Shown piece after piece: positions 2,812-52,997 of a stretch of 64,000 bases of DNA; positions within the stretch are counted from its first letter, which is position 1, and each line of letters starts with the position of its first letter. Under the pieces are notes generated by a model that saw only the letters and a program-made list of their open reading frames with translations, had not been told where the DNA came from and searched no databases. The stretch is from Candidatus Borrarchaeum weybense (GTDB lineage Archaea > Asgardarchaeota > Sifarchaeia > Borrarchaeales > Borrarchaeaceae), in assembly GCA_019057385.1 (NCBI GenBank), contig JAHQJS010000005.1, positions 128,699 to 192,698 of the forward strand, read 5' to 3'. A program made the position numbers and the translations under genes.

Positions 2812-4062
2812 ATGAAAAAGGGATTTAAAAAACTTATACCAGTCTCTGAAGCCATAAATGCCGTTTTAAGCGAACTTAAGCCACTAAAAAGCGAAATAAT
2901 ACATGTTAAAGAGGGCTTAAATCGGGTAATTGTCAATGATATCGTTGCTCGATATGATGTACCAATGTTTGACCGTTCTGCAATGGATGGCTACGCAATT
3001 AGATCAGAAGATTCTTTTGGTGCTAGTGTAACTGACCCTGTGTATCTTAAAATTACAGGGAGAATTGAGATAGGAACTATCCCAGATATTGAAATTAAAA
3101 CTGGAGACGCCGCTCAGATTATGACGGGTGCAGCGCTCCCAAAAGGAGCAGATGCTGTTATAAAAGTCGAGGATACACGAGAACATGGACATAGTATAGA
3201 GGTAATTAAACCATATCCTCCGAGAAAAAATGTTAGTATTAGAGGAGAGGATGTAAGGAGAGGTGACGTTATCCTAAAGCAAGGTCATCTTCTTCATCCT
3301 CAAGACATAGGCATCATAATAGCATCTGGACATGATCAAATAAGTGTAATCCGCAAACCAAAAGTAAGTATTATATCGACTGGGAGTGAACTTATTGATC
3401 CTGGCGAGATACTTGAACCCGGAAAGATATTTGATGTCAATAATGCCACTTTGTCTAGTTTAGTAAGTCAATTTCATTCAATCCCCTCTTTTACCAGAAG
3501 AGTAAAAGATGACAGAGACGAATTATTACAAGCCCTTGAAAAGGCAATTGAACAAACAGATGTCATCGTGTTTTCAGGGGGCAGCTCTGTCGGAGAATAT
3601 GATATAATTGATGAGATTATTCTACAAAAGGGTAAGTTATTAGTTCAAGGTGTAGCTATGCGACCAGGCGCTCCAACACTCATTGGAATCATTAACAATA
3701 AACCAGTTTTTGGTCTTCCAGGCTCACCAGTAGCGGCAATGATTTCCTTTGATGTATTTGTGCGACCAACCCTTCAAACTCTGCTTGGAATGACACCATA
3801 TGATCCAAAACCAATAATTAAAGCGAAACTCAAACGTAGTATTCCATCAGAAGTTGGAAGACGAGATTTTGCGAGAGTAAGGATAGTAAAAGAAAACAAC
3901 GAATTCTTTGCAGAACTTGTAAGAGTAAGAGGATCAGGAATTATAAGCACCTTGGTGAAAGCAGATGGCATAATTGAAGTTTCTGAAGAGCGAGAAGGCT
4001 TAAGCAAAGGAGATTCTGTTGATGTTAAACTCTTTTCACAGCATTATTTTCCCAGTTCGTGA
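2812..4062 (+). CDS. moeA: Molybdopterin molybdenumtransferase MoeA
   Basis: PMFDRSAMDGYA, IMTGA, STGSEL, SGGSSVG, GLPG motifs; start moved to ATG 2812. Confidence 0.95.
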   Translation: MKKGFKKLIPVSEAINAVLSELKPLKSEIIHVKEGLNRVIVNDIVARYDVPMFDRSAMDGYAIRSEDSFGASVTDPVYLKITGRIEIGTIPDIEIKTGDAAQIMTGAALPKGADAVIKVEDTREHGHSIEVIKPYPPRKNVSIRGEDVRRGDVILKQGHLLHPQDIGIIIASGHDQISVIRKPKVSIISTGSELIDPGEILEPGKIFDVNNATLSSLVSQFHSIPSFTRRVKDDRDELLQALEKAIEQTDVIVFSGGSSVGEYDIIDEIILQKGKLLVQGVAMRPGAPTLIGIINNKPVFGLPGSPVAAMISFDVFVRPTLQTLLGMTPYDPKPIIKAKLKRSIPSEVGRRDFARVRIVKENNEFFAELVRVRGSGIISTLVKADGIIEVSEEREGLSKGDSVDVKLFSQHYFPSS

Positions 4063-4136
4063 ACTACAACCCCTACAAGTAGCGTGGCTCCCTGAACCAT
4101 CCATTCCCGTTGAGGGGATTTTCTTGCGGAGAAATG
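4059..4136 (-). mobile_element. 78-bp ends-only IS200/IS605 derivative (PATE-like)
   Basis: Starts GTGAACTAC (reverse complement of a ...GTAGTTCAC right end), ends with hairpin-TTCTTG-N10 then ATAAC, as in the larger elements; removal restores an in-frame TAA for moeA. Confidence 0.7.
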
Positions 4137-4212
4137 ATAACAGGCTTAAGGAAATTTATCAAAAACTCTCTTAGAGAGTTCACATGACTTCAAGTGGTTA
4201 ATAGGAGGTAAA

Positions 4213-6189
4213 ATGTTGAAACGCAAAGTCTACTTAGATCTAGTGTCTATAGAAGAAGCAAAAAGAAGGTTTTATGAGCATTTTAAAATAACTTATCACC
4301 TCACTAATTCATCTATATGGGATGCAGGTGGAAAAGTTTTAGCAGAAGATATTGTTGCAGGATACGATGTACCTCCTTTTGATAGGGCTCGAATGGATGG
4401 ATATGCACTTATTGCCAGAGATTCCTTTGAGGCGGATGAAGACAATCCTATTACATTGAAAATAGTAGATGAAATACCCGCAGGTGTTATTCCAGATGTT
4501 GAAGTCAATTCTGGGGAATGTACTGTTATATCAACAGGTGCAGTAATTCCAAAAGGTGCAAATTCTGTCATCATGGTAGAGTACACAGAACAAGAAGAAA
4601 AACAAGTGAGATTATTTAGATCTGTTGTGCCTGGCGAAAACATCATGTTTGCAGGATCTGACATTAAAATAGGCGAAATTGTGTTAAGAAAGGGTGAACG
4701 ATTATCACCACGAGAAATTGGTGTTCTAGCCGCTCTAGGAGTTTCTGAAATCCCTGTTTATCAACAACCAAATGTAGCAATAATCTCAACAGGAGATGAA
4801 ATAACATCACCAGGTGAACTTCTTGAACCTGGGAAGATTTTTGATATAAATGGTGCTACATTAACAAATGCCGTGAGAGAGTGTGGATGCAAACCCAACT
4901 TTTTAGGTATTATAAAAGATTCTCCTGAAATGTTAAAAGAGCAACTCAAAAAAGCGCTCTCTAAAGCTGATGTTGTACTTATATCTGGAGGAACCTCTAA
5001 AGGTGTTGGAGACCTTTCCTACAAGGTCATCAATGAGTTAGGAACGCCAGGTATACTAGTTCACGGCGTGGCAATTAAACCAGGTAAACCACTGCTTTTG
5101 GCGGTAGTAGATAATAAAGCGATAATAGGACTGCCTGGATACCCAACATCAGCGCTAACTGTTTTTGAGCGTCTTGTAGCACCGTTCTTGCGTTCATTAG
5201 CTGGGATAAATAGTCTTGAAAAAAAGGTTCTTGAGGCATACATGGTCACACGAGTAGATCATGCTCTTGGTCGCCATGAATTTCTTCCTGTCCATATTAT
5301 TAGAAAGGACTCCAAATATTTTGCATATCCAGTTCTTACTGGTTCAGGCGCAATAACTACTCTGAGTTTTAGTGATGGGTTCGTTGAAATTCCCTCAAAC
5401 CAACTTTTCATTGATGAAAATGAAAGGGTTACTGTAGAATTATTTAGCAACACTATTGAGCCCGCAGATCTTGTCTTTATTGGAAGCCACTGTCTTGGAT
5501 TAGATCTCATCTACAATTTAATGCAAAAACATGATCCAAGTGTTTCTTTCAAACTAATCAATGTAGGATCGATGAGTGGTATAAAGGCAATAAGAAGGGG
5601 AGAAGCAGATATTGCAGGAATACATCTTTTTGACGCAAAATCAAATGAATATAATTTACCATTTCTTCAAGACATTATTGGTCAAGTCATAGTTATAAGA
5701 GGTTATAAACGAGAGCAAGGTTTGATAGTTGAAAAAGGGAATCCAAAAAATATAACGGGGCTACGAGATCTACTGAGAGATGACGTGTCTTTTATTAATA
5801 GACAAAAAGGATCTGGAACACGGATCCTCACTGATTTCGAATTAGAAAAAATCGCTCAACAAGAAAATATGAAGTTCTCAGAACTTATTTGGGCTATTAA
5901 AGGCTATGAAGTTGAGGTGAAAACACATAGTGCTATTGCATCATCCATAGCGTACAAAAAAGCGGATATTGGGGTGGCAATATATTCCGTTGCTGCAAAA
6001 TATGATCTTGATTTTATACCAATTCGTGAAGAACTCTACGATTTTATAATCCTCAAAGACCGCTTAGATAAGGAAAGCGTTAAACTCTTCATTAAAACTC
6101 TCAGATCAAAAAAATTCAAAGAAAAACTCAGTTTAGTCTATCCTGGTATGCAGCCTACTGAAAAAACGGGATCTATAATATCTGAGTAA
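4213..6189 (+). CDS. MoeA fused to a C-terminal substrate-binding (PBP) domain
   Basis: PPFDRARMDGYA, SGGTSKG, GLPGYP then GSHCLG...GSMSG...AGIHL...NRQKGSGTR. Confidence 0.93.
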   Translation: MLKRKVYLDLVSIEEAKRRFYEHFKITYHLTNSSIWDAGGKVLAEDIVAGYDVPPFDRARMDGYALIARDSFEADEDNPITLKIVDEIPAGVIPDVEVNSGECTVISTGAVIPKGANSVIMVEYTEQEEKQVRLFRSVVPGENIMFAGSDIKIGEIVLRKGERLSPREIGVLAALGVSEIPVYQQPNVAIISTGDEITSPGELLEPGKIFDINGATLTNAVRECGCKPNFLGIIKDSPEMLKEQLKKALSKADVVLISGGTSKGVGDLSYKVINELGTPGILVHGVAIKPGKPLLLAVVDNKAIIGLPGYPTSALTVFERLVAPFLRSLAGINSLEKKVLEAYMVTRVDHALGRHEFLPVHIIRKDSKYFAYPVLTGSGAITTLSFSDGFVEIPSNQLFIDENERVTVELFSNTIEPADLVFIGSHCLGLDLIYNLMQKHDPSVSFKLINVGSMSGIKAIRRGEADIAGIHLFDAKSNEYNLPFLQDIIGQVIVIRGYKREQGLIVEKGNPKNITGLRDLLRDDVSFINRQKGSGTRILTDFELEKIAQQENMKFSELIWAIKGYEVEVKTHSAIASSIAYKKADIGVAIYSVAAKYDLDFIPIREELYDFIILKDRLDKESVKLFIKTLRSKKFKEKLSLVYPGMQPTEKTGSIISE

Positions 6190-6264
6190 CAAATCATAGA
6201 AAAGAAAAAGAAGTGCGAGATTTTAAAAGACTCAATTGGTTATTCTCAGTAGAATCTCATTATT

Positions 6265-7404: not shown

Positions 7405-7645
7405 TGGTTTTCCTCCATTTAAAAATCTTTAAAACACTTATTAAAAGAACTTAATCGTATTAAAAAAAACTTGTGGTAAAAGTCTGCGTTTTTCATGTTC
7501 CATATCGTAAACTACTTTAGATTTCAACTTCTTGTCTGCAGATAGTTTCAGTCTATGGAATGAAAAAAACTATATATTCCCAACGTTAAATAACGCGACT
7601 TTTTCACTGTTTGAACTCATTAGCTTTCTTAGTACCTCATTATAA

Positions 7646-8617: not shown

Positions 8618-8665
8618 TATAAGAATACTAGACTAGAATAACTGGATTGTATTATAACTCTTTTT

Positions 8666-10681: not shown

Positions 10682-10838
10682 TCAACAAGAGCTCTCTGAA
10701 ACTTCTTTTTCATCCTTTAAAATCTTTCTGTAACTCACTTTGCGGTAGAATAATCATCATTTCGTAATTGTACGGGTTGGATTCTCTACTTCCTTTGTTG
10801 GCAAGAGTTTAAAAAGGGTAGAAAGCACTAAACCATCT

Positions 10839-11813
10839 ATGAGCCCCTTCGTCTCTATCCTTGTTCCTTGCTTAAACGAAGAAAATACTTTGCGTTCTCT
10901 TACAGGACGTGTTGAAAAGACTCTTGCTGGACTACAAAATATTCAATGCGAACTTATCTTTATAGATGATGGAAGTACAGACGAAACGGGGTCAATAATT
11001 GATCAATTAAGTCAAGAAATTCCATGGGTGAAGGCATATCATCATTCAACAACAAAAGGAAAATCTGCAGCCATAATGAACGGTTTTTACCATTCTAAAG
11101 GAAATATCATAATTCTATTAGATGCAGATCTGCAATTCTTTCCTGAAGACATTCCAGCAATCCTTTCAGAAATGACTCAGAAAAAATTAGATATTGTTAA
11201 TGGCTGGAGAAAGGAGCGAAAAGATCCTTTGTCCAGAAGGGCTGCATCTCGTCTCTATAATTCCTTTGCAAGTTCTCTCTTCGGACTAAAGGTTCATGAT
11301 TATAACTGTGGGATCAAAGGTCTAAAACGGGAGGTATTAGAATCCTTCAGATTAAGAAAAGGATATCATCGTTATATACTGGCCCTTGCAAAGCATCACG
11401 GGTTTCGTATAGGCGAAGTAGTAGTTCAACATGCCCCTCGCCCGTATGGAAAGTCTAGATACCGAACTAGTCGACTATTTGCAGGATTTGTGGATTTGAT
11501 GAGTTTAAAACTTCAATTCATGTTTATGGAGCGCCCCATGTCACTGTTTGGCGTGCTTGGCGCATTTATCTTCCTCCTCGGTCTTATTTCTGGAGCTTAT
11601 CTTGTATATCTTTGGTTTCTTGAAGGCGGTATTGGTACACGACCACTTCTCTTCCTTACAGTCCTCTTACTTGTTGCAGGCATTCAGTTTTTCTCATTTG
11701 GATTTTTAGCTGACGCAATTGCATCTTTAAAAACAGACGTTGATTATCTTAATCAATTAGTCATACAGAGGAAAGAAGAAAACACAAAAGGTCAATCACC
11801 CCCTAACAAGTGA
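10839..11813 (+). CDS. GT2 glycosyltransferase (ArnC/dolichol-phosphate type) with two C-terminal TM helices
   Basis: VPCLNEE, IDDGSTD, LDADLQ, HDYNCGIK; stop codon lies inside the adjacent element. Confidence 0.92.
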   Translation: MSPFVSILVPCLNEENTLRSLTGRVEKTLAGLQNIQCELIFIDDGSTDETGSIIDQLSQEIPWVKAYHHSTTKGKSAAIMNGFYHSKGNIIILLDADLQFFPEDIPAILSEMTQKKLDIVNGWRKERKDPLSRRAASRLYNSFASSLFGLKVHDYNCGIKGLKREVLESFRLRKGYHRYILALAKHHGFRIGEVVVQHAPRPYGKSRYRTSRLFAGFVDLMSLKLQFMFMERPMSLFGVLGAFIFLLGLISGAYLVYLWFLEGGIGTRPLLFLTVLLLVAGIQFFSFGFLADAIASLKTDVDYLNQLVIQRKEENTKGQSPPNK

Positions 11814-12199
11814 GGGGGCTTGTTCCGTGAGGAACAAGAGTAATTGGTTGATTAGCCTAAGAGAGGTCGTGGTGGAACACACATGACGGTATCTACGTTA
11901 TCAGGAGAGTTAAAGAACACACCAAGGGATGCTTCTCTAGTCCCGTGCTCTGTAAACGGTGGTTTAAACAGAGAGGAAACTCTCAGTGATCATCGTAGAG
12001 TACTGACTGATAACCTTGGCGAAGAGAACCTACTCCCCTGGTGTTGGGAGCGGCGGGACTTGCGAGTACCCGTTATTAAAACACCACCCGAGGTTGGGTA
12101 CACCAACCCCTGTCTTCGCAGAAAGGGTTGTGTGAGCAACGCTCGACCTCAATTCATGTATCCCCCCAACAAGTTGAGGGGTCTTCTTGCGAGGTAGTT
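11791..12199 (+). mobile_element. Non-autonomous IS200/IS605 element carrying a stand-alone IscB-type omegaRNA (HEARO-like), no iscB ORF
   Basis: GTCAATCACCCC..GGGGGCTTG, GTTGATTAGCCTAAG, CTACGTT, ACACC-GGATGCTTCTCTAGTCC, TAAACAG..CAGTG, AACCTTGGCGAAGAGA motif series; terminal AATTCAT-hairpin-TTCTTG-N10 then ATAAA. Confidence 0.85.
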
Positions 12200-12218
12200 A
12201 TAAAATGGTCTTCCTTTA

Positions 12219-13535: not shown

Positions 13536-13695
13536 TAAATCAACAGCCTCCATTCTTACTTTAAATGGCTTCATATAAAACAGTAATGAGTTAAATGAAA
13601 AAGTCAATCACTTTTATTTGTCAACTATAATATAATTATTAAAGGGATATTTAGAAAAAAAGATTTAGATAAAAATCGACTTATCTAAGAAACCG

Positions 13696-14442: not shown

Positions 14443-14517
14443 TAAACGATTCACCTTTTTGTTTTATAAAATCACAAAAAAAGCGGATACTAAACGTGAA
14501 TTTAATTGTGATTAACA

Positions 14518-14911: not shown

Positions 14912-16045
<1,134 letters not shown>

Positions 16046-39901: not shown

Positions 39902-40031
39902 AAAAAGAAATAATCAATATTTAGTGAATTCCCAAAAGAGAAAAAATCTTGGAAAACTAAGCGAACTAATAATAATATTCAATTGGTCCTCAAGCTTGCA
40001 CTGGGGCTTGAGTTATTAGCAGACTAGTGAT

Positions 40032-41399: not shown

Positions 41400-42027
41400 G
41401 TACTTGGTATCCAAACCATATTCCAAATCCGATGAGAATTATGCCACAAACAAGAGAAACGTATTTTAGAAATTTACCACCAACTCGTTTTCCTCCCTTT
41501 CCTAAAACTAAAGCAAGGACGAAAAACCAGAGAACGACTCCTACAACAACAAAGAAACTGTAGAAAAGGGCACTCAATTGAGTGACTCCGCCGATTACTG
41601 AGGAAAGGTAGGATCCAAATATACCAATCCAAAAAATAATGGTAATCGGGTTAGCGACTGTGATTAAATACCCTGCTGGAAATGACCATCGTATTGACAT
41701 TTTTGCAGAGTTATCTTCCTCTTTCGACTGTGGATCAATACCTTTAAACTGGATAAAATCTTTGATTGCTATAAAACCCAAGTAGACCAAGATTATACAT
41801 CCGAAAACCCAGATCACTATTTTAGCAAGAGGGTACAGAAAAAGAACAGAGAGCCCAAAAAATACGATTAATAGGTACGTTGAGTCCGCGGCTGCAGCCC
41901 CTAAGCCCGTCAAAAATCCGTGATAAAATCCATTTACGCCGCGCTTGATAACCTCCGTTGTTGTTGGGCCAACGGGAGCGGCTAAGGATATCCCTATAAG
42001 AATAGCAATGAGGATTTCCACAATCAT
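41380..42027 (-). CDS. LysE/RhtB family exporter
   Basis: GISLAAPVGP, GLGAAAAD, NPITIIFW; several TM segments. Confidence 0.9.
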   Translation of the reverse strand: MIVEILIAILIGISLAAPVGPTTTEVIKRGVNGFYHGFLTGLGAAAADSTYLLIVFFGLSVLFLYPLAKIVIWVFGCIILVYLGFIAIKDFIQFKGIDPQSKEEDNSAKMSIRWSFPAGYLITVANPITIIFWIGIFGSYLSSVIGGVTQLSALFYSFFVVVGVVLWFFVLALVLGKGGKRVGGKFLKYVSLVCGIILIGFGIWFGYQVLTYSHS

Positions 42028-42177
42028 ATTTGGCTATTTAATGCGATTTTTTAAAAACCTTTACTTTGTAGCGAAACACCATCAGTTTTTAGAGTTTATA
42101 AGTTTGAACCTACTAGAACTATGTTTAAGTATTGTTTTTTCTTAAGGTTTTAAAAAGAGAAAACGAGGCGTATTAAA

Positions 42178-42558
42178 ATGAAAAAAGAAGTAGTAGTTTC
42201 CGATAAGATTCCAAAGCCAATTGCACCTTATAGTCCAGGCATAAAAGCAGGCAATTTCATTTTCGCATCGGGGCACGTTGCGTTGGATCCCTTAACTGGA
42301 GAAATTGTAGGCGATACAATAGCCGAACAAACAGAACAAGCGTTGAAGAATCTAAGAGACGTTATTGAGGCTGCTGGAAGTTCTTTAGAGCATGTAGTAA
42401 AAACTACAGTCTTTTTAAGCGACATGAATGATTTCAAAGAGATGAATGCCGTGTACGGCAAATTCTTTCAAAATAATCCTCCAGCGCGAAGTACAGTTCA
42501 AGTAGGTCTTGTTCTAGGATTTAAAGTTGAGATTGAAGCGATTGCTATAATCCCATAG
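42178..42558 (+). CDS. ridA: RidA family enamine/imine deaminase
   Basis: PYSPG, VVKTTVFL, NAVY, PARSTVQV, VEIEAIA. Confidence 0.95.
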   Translation: MKKEVVVSDKIPKPIAPYSPGIKAGNFIFASGHVALDPLTGEIVGDTIAEQTEQALKNLRDVIEAAGSSLEHVVKTTVFLSDMNDFKEMNAVYGKFFQNNPPARSTVQVGLVLGFKVEIEAIAIIP

Positions 42559-42920
42559 ACTGCTTTTTGCTCAATATAATAAGATCCAACATTCCTTTCT
42601 TTTTTACCGCTTCGACAGCATAATTTGCTTAATTCGGAAGTTTTTAGAAGATTAGAAAGAACCCAATGTACCCTGTGAGGTGTGTATACTGTCGAAGGAA
42701 AATGAATCATGTTCTTTTAGAGGATGAGGAGCTAGTCCTTGGACCTGGGTTATAGTTTTAGCAGTCCTAGGATTGCTTACTCTCTTGTCGTTTTTGACAT
42801 AAAAAAATCTCAAGAATAAATAGAATGAAAAGGCCTCTAAAACGCGGGGGGCTTTGGACGGCGGGTGCAACTCGCCTTTTAATTCGCTGAGATGAAAAGA
42901 AAAAGGAGAAAAAAGAACTT

Positions 42921-44126
42921 CTAAGTAAGTATATCATGGAAAGTGAGAAGTTCAATATCAAGAGGCTTTTTTGTAATATTTCCTAGTCGAGCACCGATCA
43001 GGTATTTGATATTTTTCTCTGAAGCAATATCTGATAATCGCTGAGTAATAACCCCATCAAACACAATTGCGTATACTCCTTCTATTGATTGAAGTTTATT
43101 AGTGAGTTCTGAAACTGGCATTGAATCTATTGAATTAAGTTCCTCACCAAATAAAACGGCTTCGGAAGTTTCTGTAATGTTCTCTGCGCTTTCTATAAGA
43201 GGTTCAGGTACTTTGGGAGTCTTTTTCTTCTTTTTAGTACTTTCTTTTGTGGGTTTTTTTACACTTTTAACTTCCATACGTGGTTTGTCTTGTTGACCTT
43301 CGAGGTATTGTTCAATGGGTATTTTGTTCCGAAGTTCTTTGATAATTTCTTTTCGTGACAATTCTTCAACTTCTCTATTCGGTGGAGCGCGAGCAACATA
43401 GTCTATCTCTGTAAGTTGCAACAGTTCTTTGAGGACAAGTTCGCCACCTCTGTCTCCATCTACGAATGCTATAGCGGTTTTCTTGCGTGAGAGAGTGACA
43501 ATAGTATCTGGGATAGATGTGCCTTCAACAGCAATCACATTACGGAAACCATGCTTAAGAAGGTTTAATACGTCAGCTCGCCCTTCTACAATAATAATGG
43601 TCTCCGATTCGTTGATTTCTGGTCCAGCAGGAAGTTGATCCTTTCCATATTTCATGATGACTCCTAAACGTGCCGCTTTGATAACTTCTTCGCTTATCCT
43701 CTGACTCTCAGGGATAACGTCATCTTCCCATGCTCTAAGGATCTGTGTTGCCCGATTTATGATATTTTTGCGTTTTTCATCACGTACATCTTCGATTTTC
43801 GCCATGCTGACATGTGCTAAACATGGGCCGACTCTATCAACCGTTTCAAGAGCGGCCGTTAAGATGGCAGTTTCAATTTTATCTAAACTTGAGGGAATGG
43901 TGATGATTCCGGTTGATTTCCCGCCTTTTGAATCAATACTTACTTGAATTCTACCAATGCGACCTGTCTTTTGAAGTTCGCGAATGTCTAATTCTTCGCC
44001 AAGTAATCCTTCTGTTTGACCAAAGATCGCGCCAACGACGTCTGACTTCTCAACCACTCCTTCAACTTCTATTTTTGCACGAACAACATATTTTGTCGTG
44101 CTATAAGATTCAAAATTCTCATTCAT
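42921..44126 (-). CDS. dnaG: Archaeal DnaG
   Basis: VVGAIFGQTEGLLG, IIVEGRADV, DGDRGG; ATG 44126 after GGAGGA. Confidence 0.96.
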   Translation of the reverse strand: MNENFESYSTTKYVVRAKIEVEGVVEKSDVVGAIFGQTEGLLGEELDIRELQKTGRIGRIQVSIDSKGGKSTGIITIPSSLDKIETAILTAALETVDRVGPCLAHVSMAKIEDVRDEKRKNIINRATQILRAWEDDVIPESQRISEEVIKAARLGVIMKYGKDQLPAGPEINESETIIIVEGRADVLNLLKHGFRNVIAVEGTSIPDTIVTLSRKKTAIAFVDGDRGGELVLKELLQLTEIDYVARAPPNREVEELSRKEIIKELRNKIPIEQYLEGQQDKPRMEVKSVKKPTKESTKKKKKTPKVPEPLIESAENITETSEAVLFGEELNSIDSMPVSELTNKLQSIEGVYAIVFDGVITQRLSDIASEKNIKYLIGARLGNITKKPLDIELLTFHDILT

Positions 44127-44360
44127 AATTAACATCCTCCATTTTTCAAAAAGAGATTTCACAATATTTTACAATGGATCGAGATACTCGATAATGCTCA
44201 ATTTGAAAGTGAAATTAATTTTAAGGTATAATGTGAACTAAATCTTTCTTTAACTCTCCTCCTATTTATGATATGATTTGCTAACGTAATTTTTACGAAT
44301 GTAAAGGAAATTATAACGGCTATCTTTACTTTATTTTTTGGAACTGATCACATTATAACT

Positions 44361-44801
44361 TTAATCCTTACCGATAGTATGTTGACTCGATACTTGGAGT
44401 TTTGAGACTAACGAATTGAGGCTTTCAACATCTTTTGTCAGTCGACTAAACACTTTTTTCATTTTGAGCCAATGTACTAAATCGGTTTTACAACGCTTTG
44501 ATTCTAGATGACTTGCCAGTTTTTTTGTAAGTTTTTCTCCTTGATCATCGAAGTCTGCTAAGAGTATAATTCGATTATAATGTGCGAGTTGCTCTGCGAC
44601 TTCAAATAAAGGGTCACCAACATGAACGCAATGAATAGGTCCTCGTATACCAAGTGCACGCAAGGATGCTTTGTCTTTTTTTCCTTCCACGATAATCGGT
44701 GTCCCGCTGTTTGAGTCTACCATCAAGTCGTGAAGGACATTGTCCATTTTTTCGGTCCAGTTTTGTGAAGGAAACTGACTAGTTCTCTTTTTTCTAGACA
44801 A
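44361..44801 (-). CDS. Small Toprim-domain protein
   Basis: IIVEGKKD, LADFDDQGEKL. Confidence 0.88.
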   Translation of the reverse strand: MSRKKRTSQFPSQNWTEKMDNVLHDLMVDSNSGTPIIVEGKKDKASLRALGIRGPIHCVHVGDPLFEVAEQLAHYNRIILLADFDDQGEKLTKKLASHLESKRCKTDLVHWLKMKKVFSRLTKDVESLNSLVSKLQVSSQHTIGKD

Positions 44802-45050
44802 TTTTGATGCATCTGCTTTTAGTATTTATATGCATAACTCTTAGCACATTGTAGAGTATCATGTTTGCTTTTACGCATTTGCACGATTCTTATCTCTTAA
44901 TTAAAAAGAATACCCGTAGCTTTATAAAGCTACTGAAAGCAGTATCTTGCAGACGAGCACGATGCAAGGAGTATACCAATTCATCAATGCATTGAAAACG
45001 ATCATAATTAACTTAATGACAAAGGCAAAAATCAAAGAAAGGCGAGAAAC

Positions 45051-46076
45051 GTGGAAATTCCTGAGATAATCACCCGAAATCTGGAAGAAATCCTAACAGA
45101 AGAGGAACTAATCGAATTACTAAGATCTAAGAAGAAGATTAGGACATACGTCGGCTATGAAACAAGTGGATTTGTCCATATTGGGACTGCATCTACTGCT
45201 TTAAAGCAATTAGACTTTTATAACGCAGGTTGGGAAGTTGTAGTTCTTTTAGCAGATCTTCATACCTTTTTAAATTCGAAAGGATCGAAAGAATGGATTG
45301 AAAGTATGATAGACTATTGGAGAGAAATATTCAAAGCATTGGGATTGAAGAAGGCTGAATATGTTACAGGGTCTGAGTTCGAGTATGAACCGAAATACGT
45401 TCTTGATCTACTAAGATCGACGCTTCTTACAACCCAAACACGAGCACGACGCAGTATGGATGTAATTAGTAAAGAAATGGAGGATCCAAAGGTGGCTCAA
45501 CTTGTCTACCCTCTCATGCAGTCTTTAGATATTGGTGCACTCAACCTTGATGTAGCTCATGGTGGGATGGAACAACGAAAAATCCATGTGCTTGCCCGTG
45601 AGATCTTACCAAAATTGAGTTATAAGAAACCAGTATGTGTTCATGGCACATTACTTTCATCTATAAAGGGCCCTGGAGAAAAAATGAGTTCAAGTAAGCC
45701 AGAGACCGTTATTCTTGTCCATGAAAAGCCAGAAAACATCAGAAAGAAGATGCAAAACGCTTATTGTGTTAAAGGACAAGAGGAAGATAATTTTCCACTT
45801 GATGTTGTGAAAATGATTATATTTCCTGTACTCGGAGAATTAACGGTTATTCGCCCCGAAAAATTCGGTGGTGATGTACGCTACACTCGCGTCGAAGATA
45901 TTGTTTCTGATTTTGTCCAAGAAAAACTACACCCACTTGATTTGAAAAAAGCAGTAGCAGAAGCAACAATAAAGGTTTTTGCTGAAGTTAGAGATATGAT
46001 TGATTCAAATAGAGACCTTCTTGAGCCTTTAATAGAAAAATATGGTGCAGAATTAGTTGAAGAATTAAGTATCTAA
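45051..46076 (+). CDS. tyrS: Tyrosyl-tRNA synthetase
   Basis: YVGYETSGFVHIG, LADLH, YPLMQSLD, GGMEQRK, KMSSS, LHPLDLK. Confidence 0.96.
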   Translation: MEIPEIITRNLEEILTEEELIELLRSKKKIRTYVGYETSGFVHIGTASTALKQLDFYNAGWEVVVLLADLHTFLNSKGSKEWIESMIDYWREIFKALGLKKAEYVTGSEFEYEPKYVLDLLRSTLLTTQTRARRSMDVISKEMEDPKVAQLVYPLMQSLDIGALNLDVAHGGMEQRKIHVLAREILPKLSYKKPVCVHGTLLSSIKGPGEKMSSSKPETVILVHEKPENIRKKMQNAYCVKGQEEDNFPLDVVKMIIFPVLGELTVIRPEKFGGDVRYTRVEDIVSDFVQEKLHPLDLKKAVAEATIKVFAEVRDMIDSNRDLLEPLIEKYGAELVEELSI

Positions 46077-46129
46077 AATATTACTTTTTCTTGTTTTGTC
46101 TTAGATTAACTTCATTTAAAAAGAAGTAG

Positions 46130-46410
46130 AGGGATGTTAGTGTTTCCTGACACTAACTCGATGCAATCATAGGTCGGCAGTAGCTCTCATTCCTTTGCAC
46201 CGTTCTCTCATGCCAGGTGATCTTAACAACCCTCTCCCGCTGGCTGTCTCACGTCTGGGTTGACTCTGTTTTCATTGATGGGTGACACACCCTGCCTCAA
46301 CAAGAGCCCTATTTCGTGAATTTTAACTAACCAACGGTGCTCTAGATGTCGCCTTTGTTTTGCTCTAGCCATCATCGTTACTCCTAGGCTAGTCCTCGAA
46401 AAAAGGGCTT
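46130..46410 (-). ncRNA. Candidate structured non-coding RNA of unknown family
   Basis: GC-enriched intergenic block with several stems (CTAGCC/GGCTAG, GCACCGTT/AACGGTGC, GTTAGTGT/ACACTAAC); strand inferred only. Confidence 0.4.
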
Positions 46411-46550
46411 TCCTTTCATCGCTTAGGTCTATATACTCGTAGACCAATTTAAGGATTTTTGTTGAAACGTTACCTTTGCTCGGTTTCTCTCAAAAATCTT
46501 ATAATCACTAAATTATTAGCAGGTAACGCTTCAATGACAAATTTAAATTA

Positions 46551-46757
46551 GTGAGCTACCTCGTGCTGAAACATCGAGGCTTCCTGCTTCACAGATGGAC
46601 TCGATCCCCTTGACGGGTTACGGAGGTCTTATCTCCACAGGCTTAACATCCCTACGCCCCGTAGGTACTATTAACTAGTTTACCATCTATCTATATAAAC
46701 CCTGCGTCTAAATTCATCTACTTGCTCAAGCCTTGTGGCTTTCTTGAGGAATTTTCC
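46551..46757 (-). mobile_element. Non-autonomous IS605 mini-element: left end + TATA box + TnpB-type reRNA scaffold
   Basis: Minus strand GTACC..GTTAAGCCTGTGGAG..GAAGCAGGAAGCC..GGTAGCTCAC; TTTATATA about 25 nt upstream; TTTAT next to left end; close copy at 52676. Confidence 0.85.
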
Positions 46758-46810
46758 ATAAACATAATCATTTTCATCGACAACTTAGCTCCGTACAGAG
46801 GTGCTTTCTA

Positions 46811-48352
46811 ATGAAACAGTCGCTGACACTATTTGATACTGAAGAAACTGTCCTCAAAACTCTTAAAAAAGACGATATGATGGATATTGAGAGTATATCA
46901 AAATCTACACAATTAGATAATGCTCAGATTAACTCTATTGCCTTTTCACTTCAAGAAAAAGGACTGGTTCAGATAGTTGAGGAAAAAAGCACATTCATTT
47001 TTTTATCAGACGAAGGCAAAAAATATGCTACGGTAAAACTACCCGAAATTCGATTACTTCATTATCTCTGTAAAGTAGGGGCACAAGAAATCCCGACAAT
47101 CCTACAGACGCAAGATCACGGAATGGAAAAGGCAGAGGTTACTATTGGTCTCAATTGGTTAAAGAAAAAGAAATGGGCAGAACTTAAAAAACAGCAAAAT
47201 GGAGCAACACTCCTTTATGTAACCGAAACTGGAAAAGATGCGGCACTTGGCCCCTGCTGCGAAGAAGAATTCCTTTCTCTTTTAGCAAAAAGTGATTTAG
47301 TCTTAGAGGAAATGCCTTCTAAAGATAGTTATATTGATAGTTATCTTGAATTTAGAAAAAGAAAATTACTAAAAGAAAAGGAAATAACAACAAGAAAACT
47401 TCAATTAACGGAACTTGGAATGAAAGTGGTGACAGGAGAAGTCCAAATTATTAAAGAAGTGAGTAAGCTTACTCGTGATGATATAACCTCTGGAAGATGG
47501 AAATCTGTCGTGCTTAAACCCTATAATGTTACAGCACCTCCTCCTACTGTATATCTCGGGAAGAAACAGCCGTTCCTTGAATTCTTAGAAGAGGTAAGAA
47601 GGGCAGTAATTGGTATGGGATTTCAAGAAGCAAAAGGTCCCCTTATTGAGATGGAGTTTTGGAATTTCGATGCATTGTTCCAGGCGCAAGATCATCCAGC
47701 CCGTGAGATTCATGATACGTATTACTTAAAAGACCCGATATTTGGTGATTTAGAACTAGATGCTCTAAGAAAACGAGTGAAAGCGACTCACGAAAATGGC
47801 TGGACAACCGGTTCGCGCGGTTGGAGATACCCTTGGAGTTTGAAACGTGCATCCCGACTTATTCTTCGTTCCCAAACTACATCGGTCTCTATGCGATTTT
47901 TACACGAGCATAAGACTCCCCCACTCAAAATGTTCTGCCTTGACAGGAATTTCAGACCTGATGTCTTAGATGCTACACATGCTATAGAGTTTTTTCAATT
48001 GGAGGGTATTGTAGGCGACAAGAATTTGACTTTAAAGCACCATCTAGGATATTTGAAACAAATTGTGATAGAACTAATTCCAGGTGCGGAAGTGAAATTC
48101 AAGCCGGGCTATTTTCCTTTTACGGAACCTTCTGTTGAAGTCTTCGCTCGTCATCCGAAACTAGGATGGATAGAAGTCGGAGGATCTGGAATTTTCCGAC
48201 CAGAAGTCGTCAAACCATTTAATGTTGACTTTCAGGTGCTAGCTTGGGGGATCGGTATTGCACGACTAGCTATGATCTACCTTGAATATGATGACATTCG
48301 CGATCTTTACAGCGATAACCTTGACCTTCTAAGGACTAAGGAAGTGAGGTGA
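46811..48352 (+). CDS. pheS: Phenylalanyl-tRNA synthetase alpha subunit
   Basis: FWNFDALFQAQDHPARE, DATHAIEFFQLEG, YFPFTEPS, GIFRPE. Confidence 0.97.
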   Translation: MKQSLTLFDTEETVLKTLKKDDMMDIESISKSTQLDNAQINSIAFSLQEKGLVQIVEEKSTFIFLSDEGKKYATVKLPEIRLLHYLCKVGAQEIPTILQTQDHGMEKAEVTIGLNWLKKKKWAELKKQQNGATLLYVTETGKDAALGPCCEEEFLSLLAKSDLVLEEMPSKDSYIDSYLEFRKRKLLKEKEITTRKLQLTELGMKVVTGEVQIIKEVSKLTRDDITSGRWKSVVLKPYNVTAPPPTVYLGKKQPFLEFLEEVRRAVIGMGFQEAKGPLIEMEFWNFDALFQAQDHPAREIHDTYYLKDPIFGDLELDALRKRVKATHENGWTTGSRGWRYPWSLKRASRLILRSQTTSVSMRFLHEHKTPPLKMFCLDRNFRPDVLDATHAIEFFQLEGIVGDKNLTLKHHLGYLKQIVIELIPGAEVKFKPGYFPFTEPSVEVFARHPKLGWIEVGGSGIFRPEVVKPFNVDFQVLAWGIGIARLAMIYLEYDDIRDLYSDNLDLLRTKEVR

Positions 48353-50052
48353 AACAAATGCCAACTATTACGGTGTCCTACAATGACCTTATTAGTCTGA
48401 TTGGAAAAGAAATCCCATTAGAAACATTAGAGGATCGTTTGTTTTACATTAAAGCAGAAGTTGAAGATATCACACCCATTTACGGGTCAAAAAATGAAGT
48501 TGTTGACCACGATCTTCAAGTTGAGATCACTTCAGACAGACCAGATCTGCTCTCAGCAAGTGGTCTCGCACGCGTCTTAAAAGGTGTTTTTGAAGTAGAA
48601 ATGGGCCTCCAAAAGTTTGATGTTGAACCTTCTGGAATTCAATGCACTGTTGACTCTTCTGTACTAGATGTACGTCCCTATATCGTTTGTGGCGTCGTAA
48701 AAAATGTTCATTTAACAGATGCCTTAGTTCGACAGTTAATGCAACTTCAGGAAAAAATTCACGATACCCACTGTCGTAGACGACGAAAGGGCTCTATTGG
48801 ACTTCACAATCTCGATGCGGTTGAGCCTCCTTTCACATACTTGGCAGAAAAACCAGAGAATATCAACTTCGTTCCACTTAACGAGACAGAAAAAATGAAT
48901 GGCTATGAAATACTAAGAGAGATTCCAAAAGGGCGGGATTATGCTCATATAATATCGGATTTCGACAGATATCCGCTTTTGGTAGATAAAAACGGTGATG
49001 TTCTCTCCCTGCCACCAATAATCAATGGCAATCTAACAAGAGTTGACATGGATACTAGAAATCTCTTTTTTGACGTGACCGGAACTGATGAATATATCAT
49101 TATTTATGCTCTACACATTCTTCTTGCTGATCTTTACGATCGTGGCGCGAAAATCGAATCAGTTGAGATCCTCTATCCTGACAAAACTCCTGAAGTCTAT
49201 CCTAACTTCACACCTACTAAAATGAACTTGAGTCTACAAAACACAAATGAACTGCTTGGATTTGGCTTAAACCTAAATGATTTAACAACAATACTGAAAA
49301 AAATGCGATTTGATTCAAAAGAAATTGATGATGACACTTTAGAGGTTCTTGTGCCTGTATATCGACCAGACTTTCTTCATGAAGTTGATATAATTGAAGA
49401 CGTAAGTATTGGCTATGGCTATGATATAATGGAACCTGAGCTTCCGCAATCAATGACTGTGGGCGGGGAACTTCCTTTAAGCACATTCGAACGTAAGATT
49501 AAAGATTTGATGGTTGGAATGGGCTTTCAAGAAATTTTGAATTATGTCCTTACAAATATGCATGATCTTGAGACAATTCGTTCGTTTACTGAATCTAATG
49601 AGATAACTGAAATTGCAAACCCAGTAAGTGAAAAATATACTTTCATTCGTAATCAATTGATGCCAGGACTCATTAACTTTCTAAGTAAAAATACCCATAG
49701 TGCTTTTCCACAGAAAATCTTTGAAGTAGGTCCTGTCGGAATCCCTGATTCGTCTTTCATAAATAAAGTACGTACTGTTTCAAGAATAGCTGCAGCCATT
49801 ACTGACTATGCTACAAGTTATGAGCACATTCAAGCAGTAGTGGGAGGGCTTCTCACCAACTTAGGCGTTCCATTTAAACTGAAAACTGCGGTCAATCCTT
49901 CTTTTCTTGAGGGAAGAGTTGCTGAGGTCTTTGTAAAAGGTAACAAAGTAGGTGTTTTGGGAGAACTTCATCCCGAGGTATTGCTTAAATTTAAACTAGA
50001 AAACCCCACCGCCGTTTTCGAAATTGAAGAACTCCCTCTCTTTGAAGCATAA
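48349..50052 (+). CDS. pheT: Phenylalanyl-tRNA synthetase beta subunit
   Basis: DRPDLLS, QLQEKIH, SLPPIING, RPDFLHEVDIIEDV, GELHPEV. Confidence 0.97.
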   Translation: MKQMPTITVSYNDLISLIGKEIPLETLEDRLFYIKAEVEDITPIYGSKNEVVDHDLQVEITSDRPDLLSASGLARVLKGVFEVEMGLQKFDVEPSGIQCTVDSSVLDVRPYIVCGVVKNVHLTDALVRQLMQLQEKIHDTHCRRRRKGSIGLHNLDAVEPPFTYLAEKPENINFVPLNETEKMNGYEILREIPKGRDYAHIISDFDRYPLLVDKNGDVLSLPPIINGNLTRVDMDTRNLFFDVTGTDEYIIIYALHILLADLYDRGAKIESVEILYPDKTPEVYPNFTPTKMNLSLQNTNELLGFGLNLNDLTTILKKMRFDSKEIDDDTLEVLVPVYRPDFLHEVDIIEDVSIGYGYDIMEPELPQSMTVGGELPLSTFERKIKDLMVGMGFQEILNYVLTNMHDLETIRSFTESNEITEIANPVSEKYTFIRNQLMPGLINFLSKNTHSAFPQKIFEVGPVGIPDSSFINKVRTVSRIAAAITDYATSYEHIQAVVGGLLTNLGVPFKLKTAVNPSFLEGRVAEVFVKGNKVGVLGELHPEVLLKFKLENPTAVFEIEELPLFEA

Positions 50053-50081
50053 AAGAATAAGAATTACATTAATTAATGTTC

Positions 50082-50567
50082 TCACTTTTTTTCTTCAAGC
50101 AGCTTCCCATTTTTGTTAATTGTCCCTGCCCTAATTCGTGACGATGAGATTGGCATCCCATCTTCTGCTAATATTCGGGGAACACTTATTATGGTTAAGG
50201 GCACAAGCCTATTTGCTTTTCTTATGTCATTGATTTCTTCTGCAGTAGGACGAGTTTCTTCAGTAACGATTATTGCCTCCATTTCAGGTAATGTAATAGC
50301 AGGACCATATCGATCATTAAGCTTCACAATTTTGGCGCGTTGGAGAAGTCCATTATTTTGCAAATAGTTTTCCATGTTTTTAACGCGCTGCGTATAAGAT
50401 TGGACTTTTTTGGCGTTATCTTTATCGGAGAGCATTTCCTCAGAAGTAATTCCAATTAAAACATGCTCTCCGATTTTAAAAGCTTTCTGAAGAAGTGTTT
50501 TATGTCCTTTATGAATACGGTCGAAGGTCCCACCAATACCGACAAACGAATATTCTTTTTGTGGCAC
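50082..50567 (-). CDS. coaD: Phosphopantetheine adenylyltransferase (archaeal type)
   Basis: GGTFDRIHKGH, YGP, IVTEET, ISSSRIR. Confidence 0.93.
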   Translation of the reverse strand: MPQKEYSFVGIGGTFDRIHKGHKTLLQKAFKIGEHVLIGITSEEMLSDKDNAKKVQSYTQRVKNMENYLQNNGLLQRAKIVKLNDRYGPAITLPEMEAIIVTEETRPTAEEINDIRKANRLVPLTIISVPRILAEDGMPISSSRIRAGTINKNGKLLEEKK

Positions 50568-50655
50568 AGATTACCCTCAGGTTCCCTCTACATTTTTATG
50601 TGACAAACTAAAAAAATAATTGTTAGCCTCCCCACTAAAAAAACTTGTTTCGAAT

Positions 50656-51087
50656 CTACGCGCTTTGAGCGGTTTCTGTACTTTGAGGTTTAACTTCGAG
50701 GGGATTATAGGCATAAATTAAATCTATGTAAAGTGTATCTTGTCCTCCACATAGCGGACAATTTCCTAGTTTCTTGTAGACATAATCGCCTTCCTTGAAG
50801 TCTCTAATTTCTGAGTATTCGCATCCTTCTTGTTCGCATTTTAATTGAGACACTGTATGCCACTCAATCTTTTTTGAACGTCCTCTGATCCAGAAATTAA
50901 ATAACCAGATAGCTCCAAGTATTAGGAGTCCAAACAGCAATTGTGTTTGCCATTGACTCCCTTGTGGATTCTGAAAATAGCCTGTAGTTGCCGATACTAT
51001 GAAATATAAGGATACTACCATTCCAATGCCTATAAGGATTAAAATTACACGCGAAACGCGTGCTTGGGGTCTTTTTTCTTCACTCAT
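50656..51087 (-). CDS. Membrane protein with C-terminal zinc ribbon
   Basis: Two TM helices, C..C and FKEGDYV..CPLC. Confidence 0.75.
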   Translation of the reverse strand: MSEEKRPQARVSRVILILIGIGMVVSLYFIVSATTGYFQNPQGSQWQTQLLFGLLILGAIWLFNFWIRGRSKKIEWHTVSQLKCEQEGCEYSEIRDFKEGDYVYKKLGNCPLCGGQDTLYIDLIYAYNPLEVKPQSTETAQSA

Positions 51088-51097
51088 CTTTTCAACC

Positions 51098-52231
51098 TCA
51101 TTGTCCTACTCCAAGTGTGTTTCCAATTCCTGCTACGACTATCGTATCTCCTTCGTTTGTTTGATTATTAATAATCCAATGAATGCGTTTAATGACGTCA
51201 TCTACGGACGTTGCTATTGATTTTTTCATTGAAGTCAGAGCGTCCTCGATCGATTGCTTTACTATTATTGCATCAATAGGGATGTTGTACTTTACCCCAG
51301 ATTCTTCTATTTTGTGTTTTTCGGGACCGGGATCGCCAATTGCTGCGCCGACACCTTCGATCACATCGCCGGTCACTTCGCCTTCTAACTTCAAGGCGGC
51401 ATCGATCATTATTACACGAGCAACTTTCCCTTCTTTTTCCTCTATGACATTCTTTACTCCAAGTCCGGGCTTTCCAACAGTACCTCCGGGTCCCTTAGCC
51501 TTTACAATGATGACATTGCGGTTATTTATGTTCTTTTCGACTGCAACGACCTCTTTTGCTACCTCCTTCGGTTCACCGCCTCTCATGAGTCGCGCTGCGA
51601 CAAGAGGTCCTACGCCATCACCGATGGGTTTACCTTCTGCAAAGCACTTTAACGCTTCGAAATACGCCTTAGCGAAGATCATAATTAAGGGGAGCTGCAT
51701 GTAAATCTGCATGATTAAAAATGTGCTCTTAGTTTTCTTGCCAAGTAATAAGAAGTGACGTATTATTCTAAAGATAGTGAAAACGGCTATTGTCGCCTCA
51801 ATCACGTTTTCAAGTGTTTTAGAATCCGCCTCATTCGCTTTAGGTGCTACGCGAGAGACGAAATCTTCGAATCTTGACTTTCTCACATCCATCAAATGCT
51901 CTAATCGGTTTAAAACTCCTGCCGGGTCTTTATCCACAGGCATTATCATAAAGAATTCAAGGAAACCTTCTATCGTATCAAACACTTCCTCGTCAGAAGC
52001 ATCGCTAAAATTCGAGACCCGTAACTTGCAGATTACTTTGCCTTCTCGCTGCCATACATCTAACTTCATTAGTGCACGTTCAATTTGTTTAAGCCACATG
52101 AACTGCTGAATACGCTGTCCATAAAATATTGAGAAAATGATAAAGACAAAGAATAATAAATTGAAGATAACGGCATATGGATTACTTCCTTCCCCACCGC
52201 CACCTGTTAATAAATCTAATAACCCTTGCAT
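51098..52231 (-). CDS. Conserved archaeal DUF1512-like protein
   Basis: PIGDGVGPLVA, KAKGPGGTVGKPG, IDAALKLEGE, GIGNTLGV. Confidence 0.85.
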   Translation of the reverse strand: MQGLLDLLTGGGGEGSNPYAVIFNLLFFVFIIFSIFYGQRIQQFMWLKQIERALMKLDVWQREGKVICKLRVSNFSDASDEEVFDTIEGFLEFFMIMPVDKDPAGVLNRLEHLMDVRKSRFEDFVSRVAPKANEADSKTLENVIEATIAVFTIFRIIRHFLLLGKKTKSTFLIMQIYMQLPLIMIFAKAYFEALKCFAEGKPIGDGVGPLVAARLMRGGEPKEVAKEVVAVEKNINNRNVIIVKAKGPGGTVGKPGLGVKNVIEEKEGKVARVIMIDAALKLEGEVTGDVIEGVGAAIGDPGPEKHKIEESGVKYNIPIDAIIVKQSIEDALTSMKKSIATSVDDVIKRIHWIINNQTNEGDTIVVAGIGNTLGVGQ

Positions 52232-52411
52232 TGTTTTCAGCCAGCCTCAAATACATGTATTTATCCGTTTCTGTATTCCTAAGACACTTTGCTATGCATT
52301 ATCCTTTTCACTTTTAAACTATTCCGTAATGGACACAGTTGACAAGAATTCAGACAGTATTCATTGAATAGAGAGAACATCCTCTTTGGTATTGATATAA
52401 GCAGAAAAAGT

Positions 52412-52534
52412 GGACCTTCAGCATTCAGGTTTCCCATCTGCTCTCGCAAGGTAGTACTCCCACGAACGTCTCCAGACTTAACTTCTGAGTTCGGCCGGGA
52501 TCAGGTGTGGCCCTGGAGCGATGGCCGAAGATCC
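52412..52534 (-). rRNA. 5S rRNA (stand-alone)
   Basis: GGATCTTC..GAAGGTCC terminal helix, CACACCTGATCCC, CCGAAC, GAAGTTAAG, AGTACT, GGGAAAC; upstream TTTATATA. Confidence 0.95.
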
Positions 52535-52615
52535 AATATAAGGCATATCCCATCTATATAAAAACTTTACTACAAAGTATCAATACGTCAATCGTTGATC
52601 TAGAAAAAGTAAAGA

Positions 52616-52662
52616 TGGTGGGGACGGAGGGATTTTCAGAAAGAGAGACTTTCTCTCTTTTA
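52616..52662 (-). pseudogene. Displaced 3' end of tRNA-Trp with T-loop intron remnant (att-like direct repeat)
   Basis: 52616-52635 identical to 53505-53524; adjacent sequence matches the tRNA-Pro 59/60 intron. Confidence 0.8.
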
Positions 52663-52675
52663 TTTTTATTAATAA

Positions 52676-52997
52676 GTGAGCTACCTCGTGCGAAAGCATG
52701 GAGGCTTCCTGCTTCTCAGACGGACTCGATCCCCGTCCGTGACGGGTTACGGAGGTCGTATCTCCACAGGCTTAACATCCCTACGCCCCGTAGGTACGGT
52801 AAACGATGGTGAGACCATCGGAGTATGCACCTTGTCGGCAAGTGTTCCTGTTATCCCTCCAATTGCTGTTGATATCTTTCTCATTTCACCTATATAACTT
52901 GAGGCAGACCCCCCATTGCACATGATGCAAGTGAACATACACATCTACCGCAATTCATCACCACGCTGAAGCGCTGGTGCTTTCTTGCTTAGCTACT
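52676..52997 (-). mobile_element. Non-autonomous IS605 mini-element with TnpB-type reRNA scaffold and 45-aa remnant ORF
   Basis: About 120 bp near-identical to 46551-46668; left end closely resembles that of the TnpB element at 40032. Confidence 0.85.

Follow-up and report, generated by a model that had tools for sequence, protein, structure and literature searches.

A probable network of non-autonomous IS200/IS605-family transposons with IscB- and TnpB-type guide RNA scaffolds in the Asgard archaeon Candidatus Borrarchaeum weybense

We analyzed a 64,000-nt stretch of contig JAHQJS010000005.1 from the Asgard archaeon Candidatus Borrarchaeum weybense (G000:C5:128699-192698), hereafter called the window; positions given without a prefix refer to it. 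Five short insertions are spread over the window, e1 (4059-4136), e2 (11791-12199), e3 (40032-41400), e4 (46551-46757) and e5 (52676-52998). Taken as a whole, they are very probably non-autonomous IS200/IS605-family ('OMEGA') transposons that belong to a single network in this archaeon. Three traits of the IS200/IS605 family were found, namely palindromic ends, insertion 3' of a tetra- or pentanucleotide without target site duplication, and complementarity between guide and cleavage site. Traits of elements resembling palindrome-associated transposable elements (PATEs), that is both ends, no protein gene and many dispersed copies, were found as well. The genome (G000) measures 4.18 Mb in 8 contigs, with 37% G+C and an estimated contamination of 7%.

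Shared ends and the address code

We describe each element by its left end (LE) together with its right end (RE), both read on the active strand, and by the 4-nt guides of these ends, G_L and G_R. The motif AATTCAT-N(10-35)-TTCTTG was found four times in the window, where 0.31 occurrences are expected, and none of 100 shuffled sequences reached four. The LE of e1 has TTCTTG (4121-4126) without AATTCAT. The hairpin-TTCTTG ends of the original prediction, four of the five with AATTCAT, were thus present at every position that it had named. End hairpins were clear in e2, e3 and e5, and had just 4-5 bp in e1 and in the LE of e4. Subterminal imperfect palindromes, on the same (active) strand at both ends, were observed in three of the elements (e2, e3, e5) and across the genome-wide families.

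To define the boundaries, we aligned the flanks of the elements with the same-genus genomes G001-G004. Empty sites were found for all five elements and target duplication was seen at none. The insertion polymorphism and the exact ends were therefore observed directly: all five are true insertions, and all are younger than the split from the congeners. The tetranucleotide beside the N10/11 block occurs once at the empty sites and is therefore part of the target and not of the element. The pentamers that abut the elements had been regarded as one related series. They are rather the target sites of two address codes, a TTAC-type and a TTAT-type.

The orientation of the cargo settles which end is which. 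From the left boundary of e2 its omegaRNA runs into the element, which requires the guide to be in the flank on the left. The motif of e3 is upstream of tnpB and on the opposite strand, while e4 and e5 carry a block resembling the 3' end of tnpB, in antisense, at the boundary opposite the motif. From this orientation in e2-e5 it follows that the opposite-strand reading of the motif gives the LE of the active strand. Relative to the shared ends, TnpB runs along the active strand and IscB against it, and for either RNA class the guide derives from the flank past the RE.

The cleavage or target tetranucleotide can be predicted from the four bases that directly precede the hairpin (on its 5' side) in the active strand, and this rule, too, is a direct observation. 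The LE guide AAAG went with TTAC in 52/60 LEs and AAGA with TTAT in 50/54 LEs, none of the latter having TTAC (Fisher p = 9e-27 for the association). The LE guides GAGA and GAAG, found on both TnpB-type and IscB-type LEs, went with TCAT and TCAC, respectively. In family D, which includes the tnpA-bearing element, AAGT/AGTT went with TTAA in most of 13 copies retrieved. At the RE, GAAG was paired with TCAC in 50 copies and CAAG with TGAC in 9-11 ends of HEARO type (the IscB omegaRNA). Covariation linked guide base 1 to site base 2, and base 4 of the guide to base 4 of the site, while guide base 2 (A) and site base 1 (T) were invariant. In the register of IS608, A+16 pairs with T-3 and A+17 with T-4 (PMC5934647), and the covarying positions agree with these crystal contacts. 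The code also fits the IS608 pairs AAAG/TTAC and GAAT/TCAA (PMC3201880, PMC5934647). The 'AT' 3' of the LE hairpin, with which ATGAATT starts, probably matches the position of the IS608 base-triplet A+42/T+43.

We propose that an LE would be made up, on the active strand, of the target tetranucleotide, N10-11, CAAG plus G_L, an imperfect hairpin and AT..., and an RE of G_R, a hairpin, about 4 nt and then the cleavage tetranucleotide. The RE itself would be either the 3' end of the TnpB omegaRNA scaffold (...TAGYTCAC^, where ^ marks the junction) or the reverse complement of the first IscB omegaRNA hairpin (...TGATTGAC^).

Genome-wide families and the single tnpA

A census of the end motif, suggested along with the original prediction, was performed with a profile built from the motif (nhmmer). 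It returned 136 LEs in the genome, in discrete length classes. The copy families and the gene census given below were directly observed. The genome has one Y1 tnpA (131 bits), 41 TnpB zinc-ribbon matches (about 33 of them in long frames), 16 IscB and 36 HEARO. HEARO was present upstream of 16/16 iscB genes, which leaves 20 orphans. These orphans are full-length and score 116-134 bits, equal to the iscB-linked copies.

For the length classes, each LE was paired with the nearest RE terminus and the distance was measured from RE to LE. The shortest class (~31 nt, about 20 copies) consists of single-hairpin minis with the terminus GTGAACTAC (TnpB-type) or GTCAATCAC (HEARO-type). Elements with a TnpB scaffold only had lengths of ~188 nt (16 copies, e4 type), ~240 nt (13 copies), ~298 nt (about 20 copies, e5 type) and ~315 nt (8 copies). 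HEARO-only elements measured ~390 nt (10 or more copies, e2 type), tnpB elements ~1350-1600 nt and HEARO+iscB elements ~1523 nt. The length classes of e1, e2, e4 and e5 have 10-20 genome copies each. Since each deletion class is found at many loci, the classes transposed after the deletion had arisen.

The same LE architecture was observed on tnpB, TnpB-RNA-only, HEARO+iscB and HEARO-only elements; most iscB elements have a variant LE, CTTTCCT-hairpin-TCTCCAGA. The proposal of one end architecture for both RNA classes is supported by these data, as the LE core of e2 (12160-12189) is identical, at 30/30 positions, to the LE of a TnpB-type mini at C7:66025-66054. The single-hairpin minis, about 50 nt overall (for instance C7:539634-539693, C3:105350-105395 and C7:90577-90622), have one hairpin between the RE terminus (GTGAACTAC or GTCAATCAC) and the LE guide block with its N10-11. 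Beyond this genome, the LE motif was found in many Asgard genera, with hairpin arms that differ by genus and stay self-complementary. We counted 20 matches in the same-class genome G005, 9 in G040, 8 in G069, 6 in G035 and 6 in G045, while reversed-pattern controls of this phylum-wide search gave 0-1 matches.

As had been predicted, there is no tnpA within the window, and the 4.18 Mb of the genome hold only the one copy. It is located at C7:194221-194586 within a tnpA-tnpB element, encodes 142 aa and has the HUH motif. At the orthologous locus of G004 we found the same element, the two, flanks included, being 94% identical across 3.4 kb. The two tnpA genes differ at 10/429 nt, 8 of these at third codon positions, and the frame is intact; the adjacent tnpB shows 31/428 amino-acid changes. 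This pattern indicates that tnpA is intact and under purifying selection. Apart from this gene, only tnpA fragments were found in G004. A 10-nt sequence, ATAGACTTGG, opens the LE of the tnpA element and recurs right after its RE (...GTAGTTCAC^ATAGACTTGG; L001 1381-1390 and 3167-3176). It looks like the remnant of a tandem or circle-junction copy.

The LE of the tnpA element has diverged (GGAAAG-hairpin-GATAAGAG, target TTAA), and action of this TnpA on the other families is therefore an assumption. We considered whether this LE might be unrelated to the others and rejected this, as 12 sister copies show the same layout with their own code, TTAA. An alternative is that the elements are mobilised by some other transposase, with its tnpA lost, unassembled or borne by a virus or plasmid, or that they spread by nuclease-driven homing alone. 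This is favoured by the different end family of the resident tnpA, by the finding of no tnpA in three incomplete congeners (69-77% complete) and by the assembly, whose 8 contigs and 7% contamination mean that a second tnpA could be unassembled or extrachromosomal. However, in each of the two complete genomes of this genus exactly one intact tnpA has been retained, at a shared locus and under apparent purifying selection, and all end families have the same layout and pairing rule, so that target choice comes from the element and not from the enzyme. Homing alone cannot produce insertions at new TTAC or TTAT sites. We consider this alternative improbable. As target choice is written in the DNA of the elements, one enzyme could serve all families, and it is plausible from the sequences that one Y1 TnpA acts in trans for both RNA classes.

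According to the explanation by a single OMEGA network, a Y1 (HUH) TnpA would excise the active strand in trans and insert it 3' of a tetranucleotide that pairs with G_L, without duplication. The sole candidate for this enzyme in the genome would be the conserved tnpA described above. Internal deletions would have led to derivatives that still transpose, with the IscB omegaRNA only (e2) or the TnpB scaffold only (e4, e5). Further deletion derivatives would be the element with two ends only (e1) and the ~50-nt single-hairpin minis elsewhere. The many TnpB and IscB proteins that other loci encode could take up the RNAs of the protein-less elements in trans, and the loaded nucleases would cut the emptied donor site, after which recombination would restore the element. 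Which TnpA acts, transcription of the scaffolds and use of their RNAs in trans are inferred.

The individual insertions, their guides and host genes

The cargo proposed in the original prediction was, in part, as described: e2 carries an omegaRNA, e3 carries tnpB and e4 and e5 carry a putative TnpB RNA scaffold. The element said to carry nothing, e1, is composed of RE and LE pieces. It is a protein-less mini-element of 78 nt (4059-4136, minus strand), absent from its site in G003 and G004. The TnpB-type RE (4059-4108, minus strand, 50 nt) is 88% identical to the family-A RE, and the truncated LE (4109-4136, minus strand, 28 nt) is 86% identical to the family-A LE. The target TTAT (ATAA on the plus strand) is at 4137-4140. 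This element is decayed, both hairpins being weak. In G001 we found two ~81-nt copies of the e1 type, and the one inspected has better hairpins than e1. The element lies between two tandem MoeA-family genes (2755-4062 and 4213-6189), the second of which is fused to a PBP-like domain.

The element e2 is protein-less and 409 nt long (11791-12199, active strand minus). Its empty site reads '...cacaaaag^ATAAA' in G004 and G002, and G001 is likewise empty; the target TTTAT (ATAAA on the plus strand) is at 12200-12204. About 9 further full-length copies, of 84-93% identity, were found in the genome. The HEARO (IscB omegaRNA) scaffold at 11791-12033 on the plus strand matches Rfam RF02033 with 128.7 bits (cut-off 83) over the full model, positions 1-211. 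It is 91-96% identical to scaffolds adjoining iscB genes, most of these with intact frames. On the opposite strand, its first hairpin is the RE hairpin of e2. The guide would be the ~20 nt upstream (11771-11790), within the 3' end of a GT2 gene, a position that we took over from established IscB biology. We found no IscB (RRXRR) match in the window, so that e2 is an orphan scaffold, and a 104-aa open reading frame (ORF) that overlaps it (11883-12197) matched no Pfam family. The LE (12151-12199, minus strand) consists of N10, CAAGAAGA (G_L = AAGA), an 8-bp hairpin and then ATGAATT.

Homology of e2 to iscB-bearing elements ends at 12033, and the following 117 nt up to the LE (12034-12150) are common to other HEARO-only copies. 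Next to e2, the window is without ~51 nt of intergenic DNA that is present in G004 and G002 (L007 1449-1501, L008 ~1449-1503). In G004 these ~51 nt sit between two ATAAA (TTTAT) sites, of which the window retains one. This loss could be a deletion between short repeats that preceded the insertion, or a deletion associated with the end.

The only element of the window with a protein gene is e3 (40032-41400, plus strand, 1369 nt, tnpB-only), for which G003 has the exact empty site '...TGAT^tacttggta'. This site confirms the target TGAT at 40028-40031. The LE occupies 40032-40079 on the plus strand, and the RE, on the same strand, ends with ...GTATGTCAG at 41400. The gene (40177-41367, plus strand, 396 aa) matched PF01385 OrfB_IS605 (8e-13) and PF07282 Cas12f1-like_TNB (6e-16). 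With RuvC-like and Zn-ribbon domains in one frame beside the RE, the sequence identifies the product as TnpB. The predicted guide is at 41401-41420. Full copies of e3, with 85-86% identity, are present at other loci in G004. We also tried GTGAACTAC at 37637-37645 (minus strand) as an element terminus and rejected it as a chance match, since it is within a long ORF and has no adjoining hairpin or LE.

Both e4 and e5 are protein-less and on the minus strand. The first (46551-46757, 207 nt) has the empty site 'aaatta^GTAA' in G004 and G002. It consists of a TnpB-type RE with scaffold (46551-46675), a TATA-like box, GTTTATATAG (46691-46700), and an LE (46711-46757) with the 4-5 bp hairpin, all on the minus strand. 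Its target (46758-46761) is ATAA here and GTAA in the relatives, and its predicted guide is at 46531-46550. The second (52676-52998, 323 nt) has the empty site 'attaataa^GTAA' in G002, a target (52999-53002) that reads GCAA here and GTAA in G002, and a predicted guide at 52656-52675. Its parts are a TnpB-type RE with scaffold (52676-52797, minus strand), a 58-nt remnant of tnpB coding sequence (~52817-52874) and an LE (52952-52998, minus strand), and it has a TATA-like box at 52890-52898 (minus strand). Compared with a full tnpB element (C5:22775-24300), e5 is a patchwork that joins the LE, these 58 nt of coding sequence and the final ~150 nt. We observed that e4 and e5 have 122 nt in common, which are 90% identical and correspond by homology to the 3' end of elements with tnpB. 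The scaffolds of e1, e4 and e5 are placed and oriented as would be expected of a TnpB right-end RNA (reRNA), and they match, piece by piece, the final ~150 nt of the full tnpB element.

A 5S rRNA gene (52413-52532, minus strand, 77.6 bits) is located 144 nt from e5, with no 16S or 23S gene in the window. A tRNA gene at 55914-56016 (plus strand) has a 32-nt intron-like insertion 3' of the anticodon stem-loop, and a weak tRNA match was obtained at 62874-62932 (plus strand, 30.1 bits, cut-off 29).

Three of the five elements supply stop codons to host genes, as had been predicted; this was confirmed by comparison with the C-termini that the genes natively have in relatives with empty sites. The stop TGA of MoeA (4060-4062) comes from e1 and lies inside GTGAACTAC, where the relatives run three codons longer. 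The stop TGA of the GT2 gene (11811-11813) is in the first HEARO hairpin of e2, in place of ...DKKD*. The stop TAA of LysE (41380-41382, minus strand) is provided by the RE of e3 in place of about 14 residues. Genome-wide, 16/102 elements abut host gene 3' ends in the same way. As the RE terminus has stop codons on both strands, the supply of stops is apparently a side effect of insertions that are tolerated close to the ends of genes. The idea of a selected trait was rejected as unneeded, given these both-strand stops and the same effect in the 16/102 elements.

We compared 102 guides (24 nt) with the genome, and each full match was to the guide's own flank only. Regarding the dispersed guide repertoire that had been suggested, every guide-side flank was indeed unique, but among the 102 guides none had a second target in its own genome with an adjacent target-adjacent motif (TAM), the best partial matches (18-21 nt, the two best exact ones 18-19 nt) being without the required motif. 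Guides that match only their own donor site are what the published homing model expects. The dispersed guides might instead be a repertoire domesticated by the host, for gene regulation or for defence against foreign DNA, rather than selfishly maintained. The elements at host gene 3' ends, 3/5 in the window and the 16/102 in the genome, with guides that overlap coding sequence, would fit this. The match of each guide to its own flank alone, and the lack of the motif at second matches, argue against it. Moreover, presence and absence vary among the congeners, which is unexpected for a fixed host function, and any frame that enters the RE terminus is closed by its stops (G-TGA-AC, G-TAG-TT), which leaves the supply of stops a by-product. 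We regard domestication as highly improbable.

Besides the points on tnpA given above, several observations weigh against a single active network. Decay is seen in e1, and a weak hairpin at the LE of e4. The address code has exceptions: e3 follows TGAT although its G_L, AAAG, predicts TTAC; the targets of e4 and e5 are now TTAT and TTGC, in contrast to TTAC at the empty sites of relatives; in the single-hairpin minis the guide is AAAG but the right terminus TCAC, which breaks the rule there; and the pair at the e3-type RE (GAAC/TCAG) hinges on where the foot of the hairpin is placed. A search of 40900-53100 with a permissive E-value assigned no Rfam family to the TnpB-type scaffolds. RNAalifold on 23 B-type scaffolds gave stems, but the copies resemble each other too closely for compensatory changes to show up, and none did. 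The altered targets of e4 and e5, the two B-type minis of the window, would block both TnpA cleavage at the LE and recognition of the donor joint by the nuclease, and would therefore fix these elements in place; there are just two cases, and they may be due to chance.

Some of these points would be expected if the protein-less cassettes were inert deletion relics, which transposed in the past and are now decaying, their RNAs being neither expressed nor used. The degenerate hairpins at both ends of e1, the 4-5 bp hairpin of e4, the departure of the e4 and e5 targets from TTAC and the missing covariation signal among the 23 closely similar copies of this genome are in line with it. However, the same deletion architectures are found at 10-20 loci each, and orphan HEARO keep the full length and the 116-134 bits of iscB-linked copies. 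Between e4 and e5, conservation of the 120-nt TnpB-type scaffold is ~90%, in contrast to the differing sequence around it, and in e4-type copies a TATA-like box lies ~20-25 nt upstream of the conserved scaffold. In addition, all five insertions postdate the split from the congeners. Taking both sides together, we think it unlikely that the cassettes are inert relics.

The single OMEGA network, which we prefer, allows for a further and more tentative proposal. One vertically kept TnpA may drive more than 130 non-autonomous elements with at least five addresses encoded in cis, and the gene-less omegaRNA elements may be hyperparasites that borrow both this TnpA and the TnpB and IscB nucleases to re-enter emptied sites. 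We see this as possible, with the balance tipping somewhat against it. If true, it would describe a three-layer selfish network in a presumably polyploid Asgard cell, a natural counterpart of laboratory experiments on 'resetting the site'.

Relation to known systems

The locus provides an example of a fully bounded OMEGA transposon ecosystem in an Asgard archaeon, with an empty site for each element, and several natural variants of the IS608-type address code occur together in one genome. The genome is therefore well suited to supply matched TnpA, TnpB and IscB proteins, omegaRNAs and sets of ends to assays of excision, of homing and of guiding in trans. The locus also has a bearing on the circulation of RNA-guided nucleases within the lineage of archaea that is closest to eukaryotes.

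Protein-less PATEs bounded by IS1341/TnpB-type transposon ends reportedly occur in haloarchaea (Haloquadratum walsbyi), and stand-alone omegaRNAs have a precedent in HEARO RNAs (Rfam RF02033) without an HNH ORF. Set against these, B. weybense has both IscB-type and TnpB-type gene-less mobile elements with one end architecture in one genome.

IS608 of Helicobacter pylori has subterminal imperfect palindromes, the 4 bases 5' of its hairpins pair with the cleavage tetranucleotide, and it inserts 3' of the target without duplication (PMC3201880, PMC5934647). Family B of this study has the identical AAAG/TTAC pair, 'AT' follows the LE hairpin in both systems, and the distance from target to hairpin is ~18-19 nt in both. 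The RE cleavage site is 8 nt past the hairpin here and 10 nt in IS608, and most of our elements, unlike IS608, are without tnpA.

In Ktedonobacter racemifer, ISC (IscB) and IS605B (TnpB-only) elements share terminal hairpins with TnpB antisense to IscB, have 4-bp targets without duplication and ends defined from empty-site comparison, and mobilisation in trans by a Y1 TnpA was predicted (PMC4810608). The arrangement of shared termini and opposed TnpB and IscB is the same as here. The targets differ, being GT^GR and ATGA there and TTAC, TTAT, TCAT, TCAC and TTAA here. This work (Kapitonov 2016) preceded the discovery of omegaRNA, and RNA-only derivatives were not described in it.

A further likeness is to the IS605 network of Geobacillus stearothermophilus (Meers 2023), where a single candidate tnpA stands beside about 47 elements of several families. 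These elements have similar LEs and REs and carry tnpB, iscB or no gene; the gene-less ones are PATE-like and often encode omegaRNAs that need a nuclease in trans (bioRxiv 10.1101/2023.03.14.532601). Shared IscB/TnpB termini, mobilisation in trans and protein-less omegaRNA elements are already published (PMC4810608; bioRxiv 10.1101/2023.03.14.532601), networks of this type are known from bacteria and from archaea other than this one, and therefore no new mechanism is revealed here. In both G. stearothermophilus and B. weybense, DNA guides within the ends recognise the target, and a lone tnpA is accompanied by tnpB, iscB or gene-less cargo. The network of B. weybense, known from its sequence alone, differs in its Asgard host, in a copy number about three times higher (136 LEs), in at least five LE address codes and in the presence of single-hairpin minis of ~50 nt.

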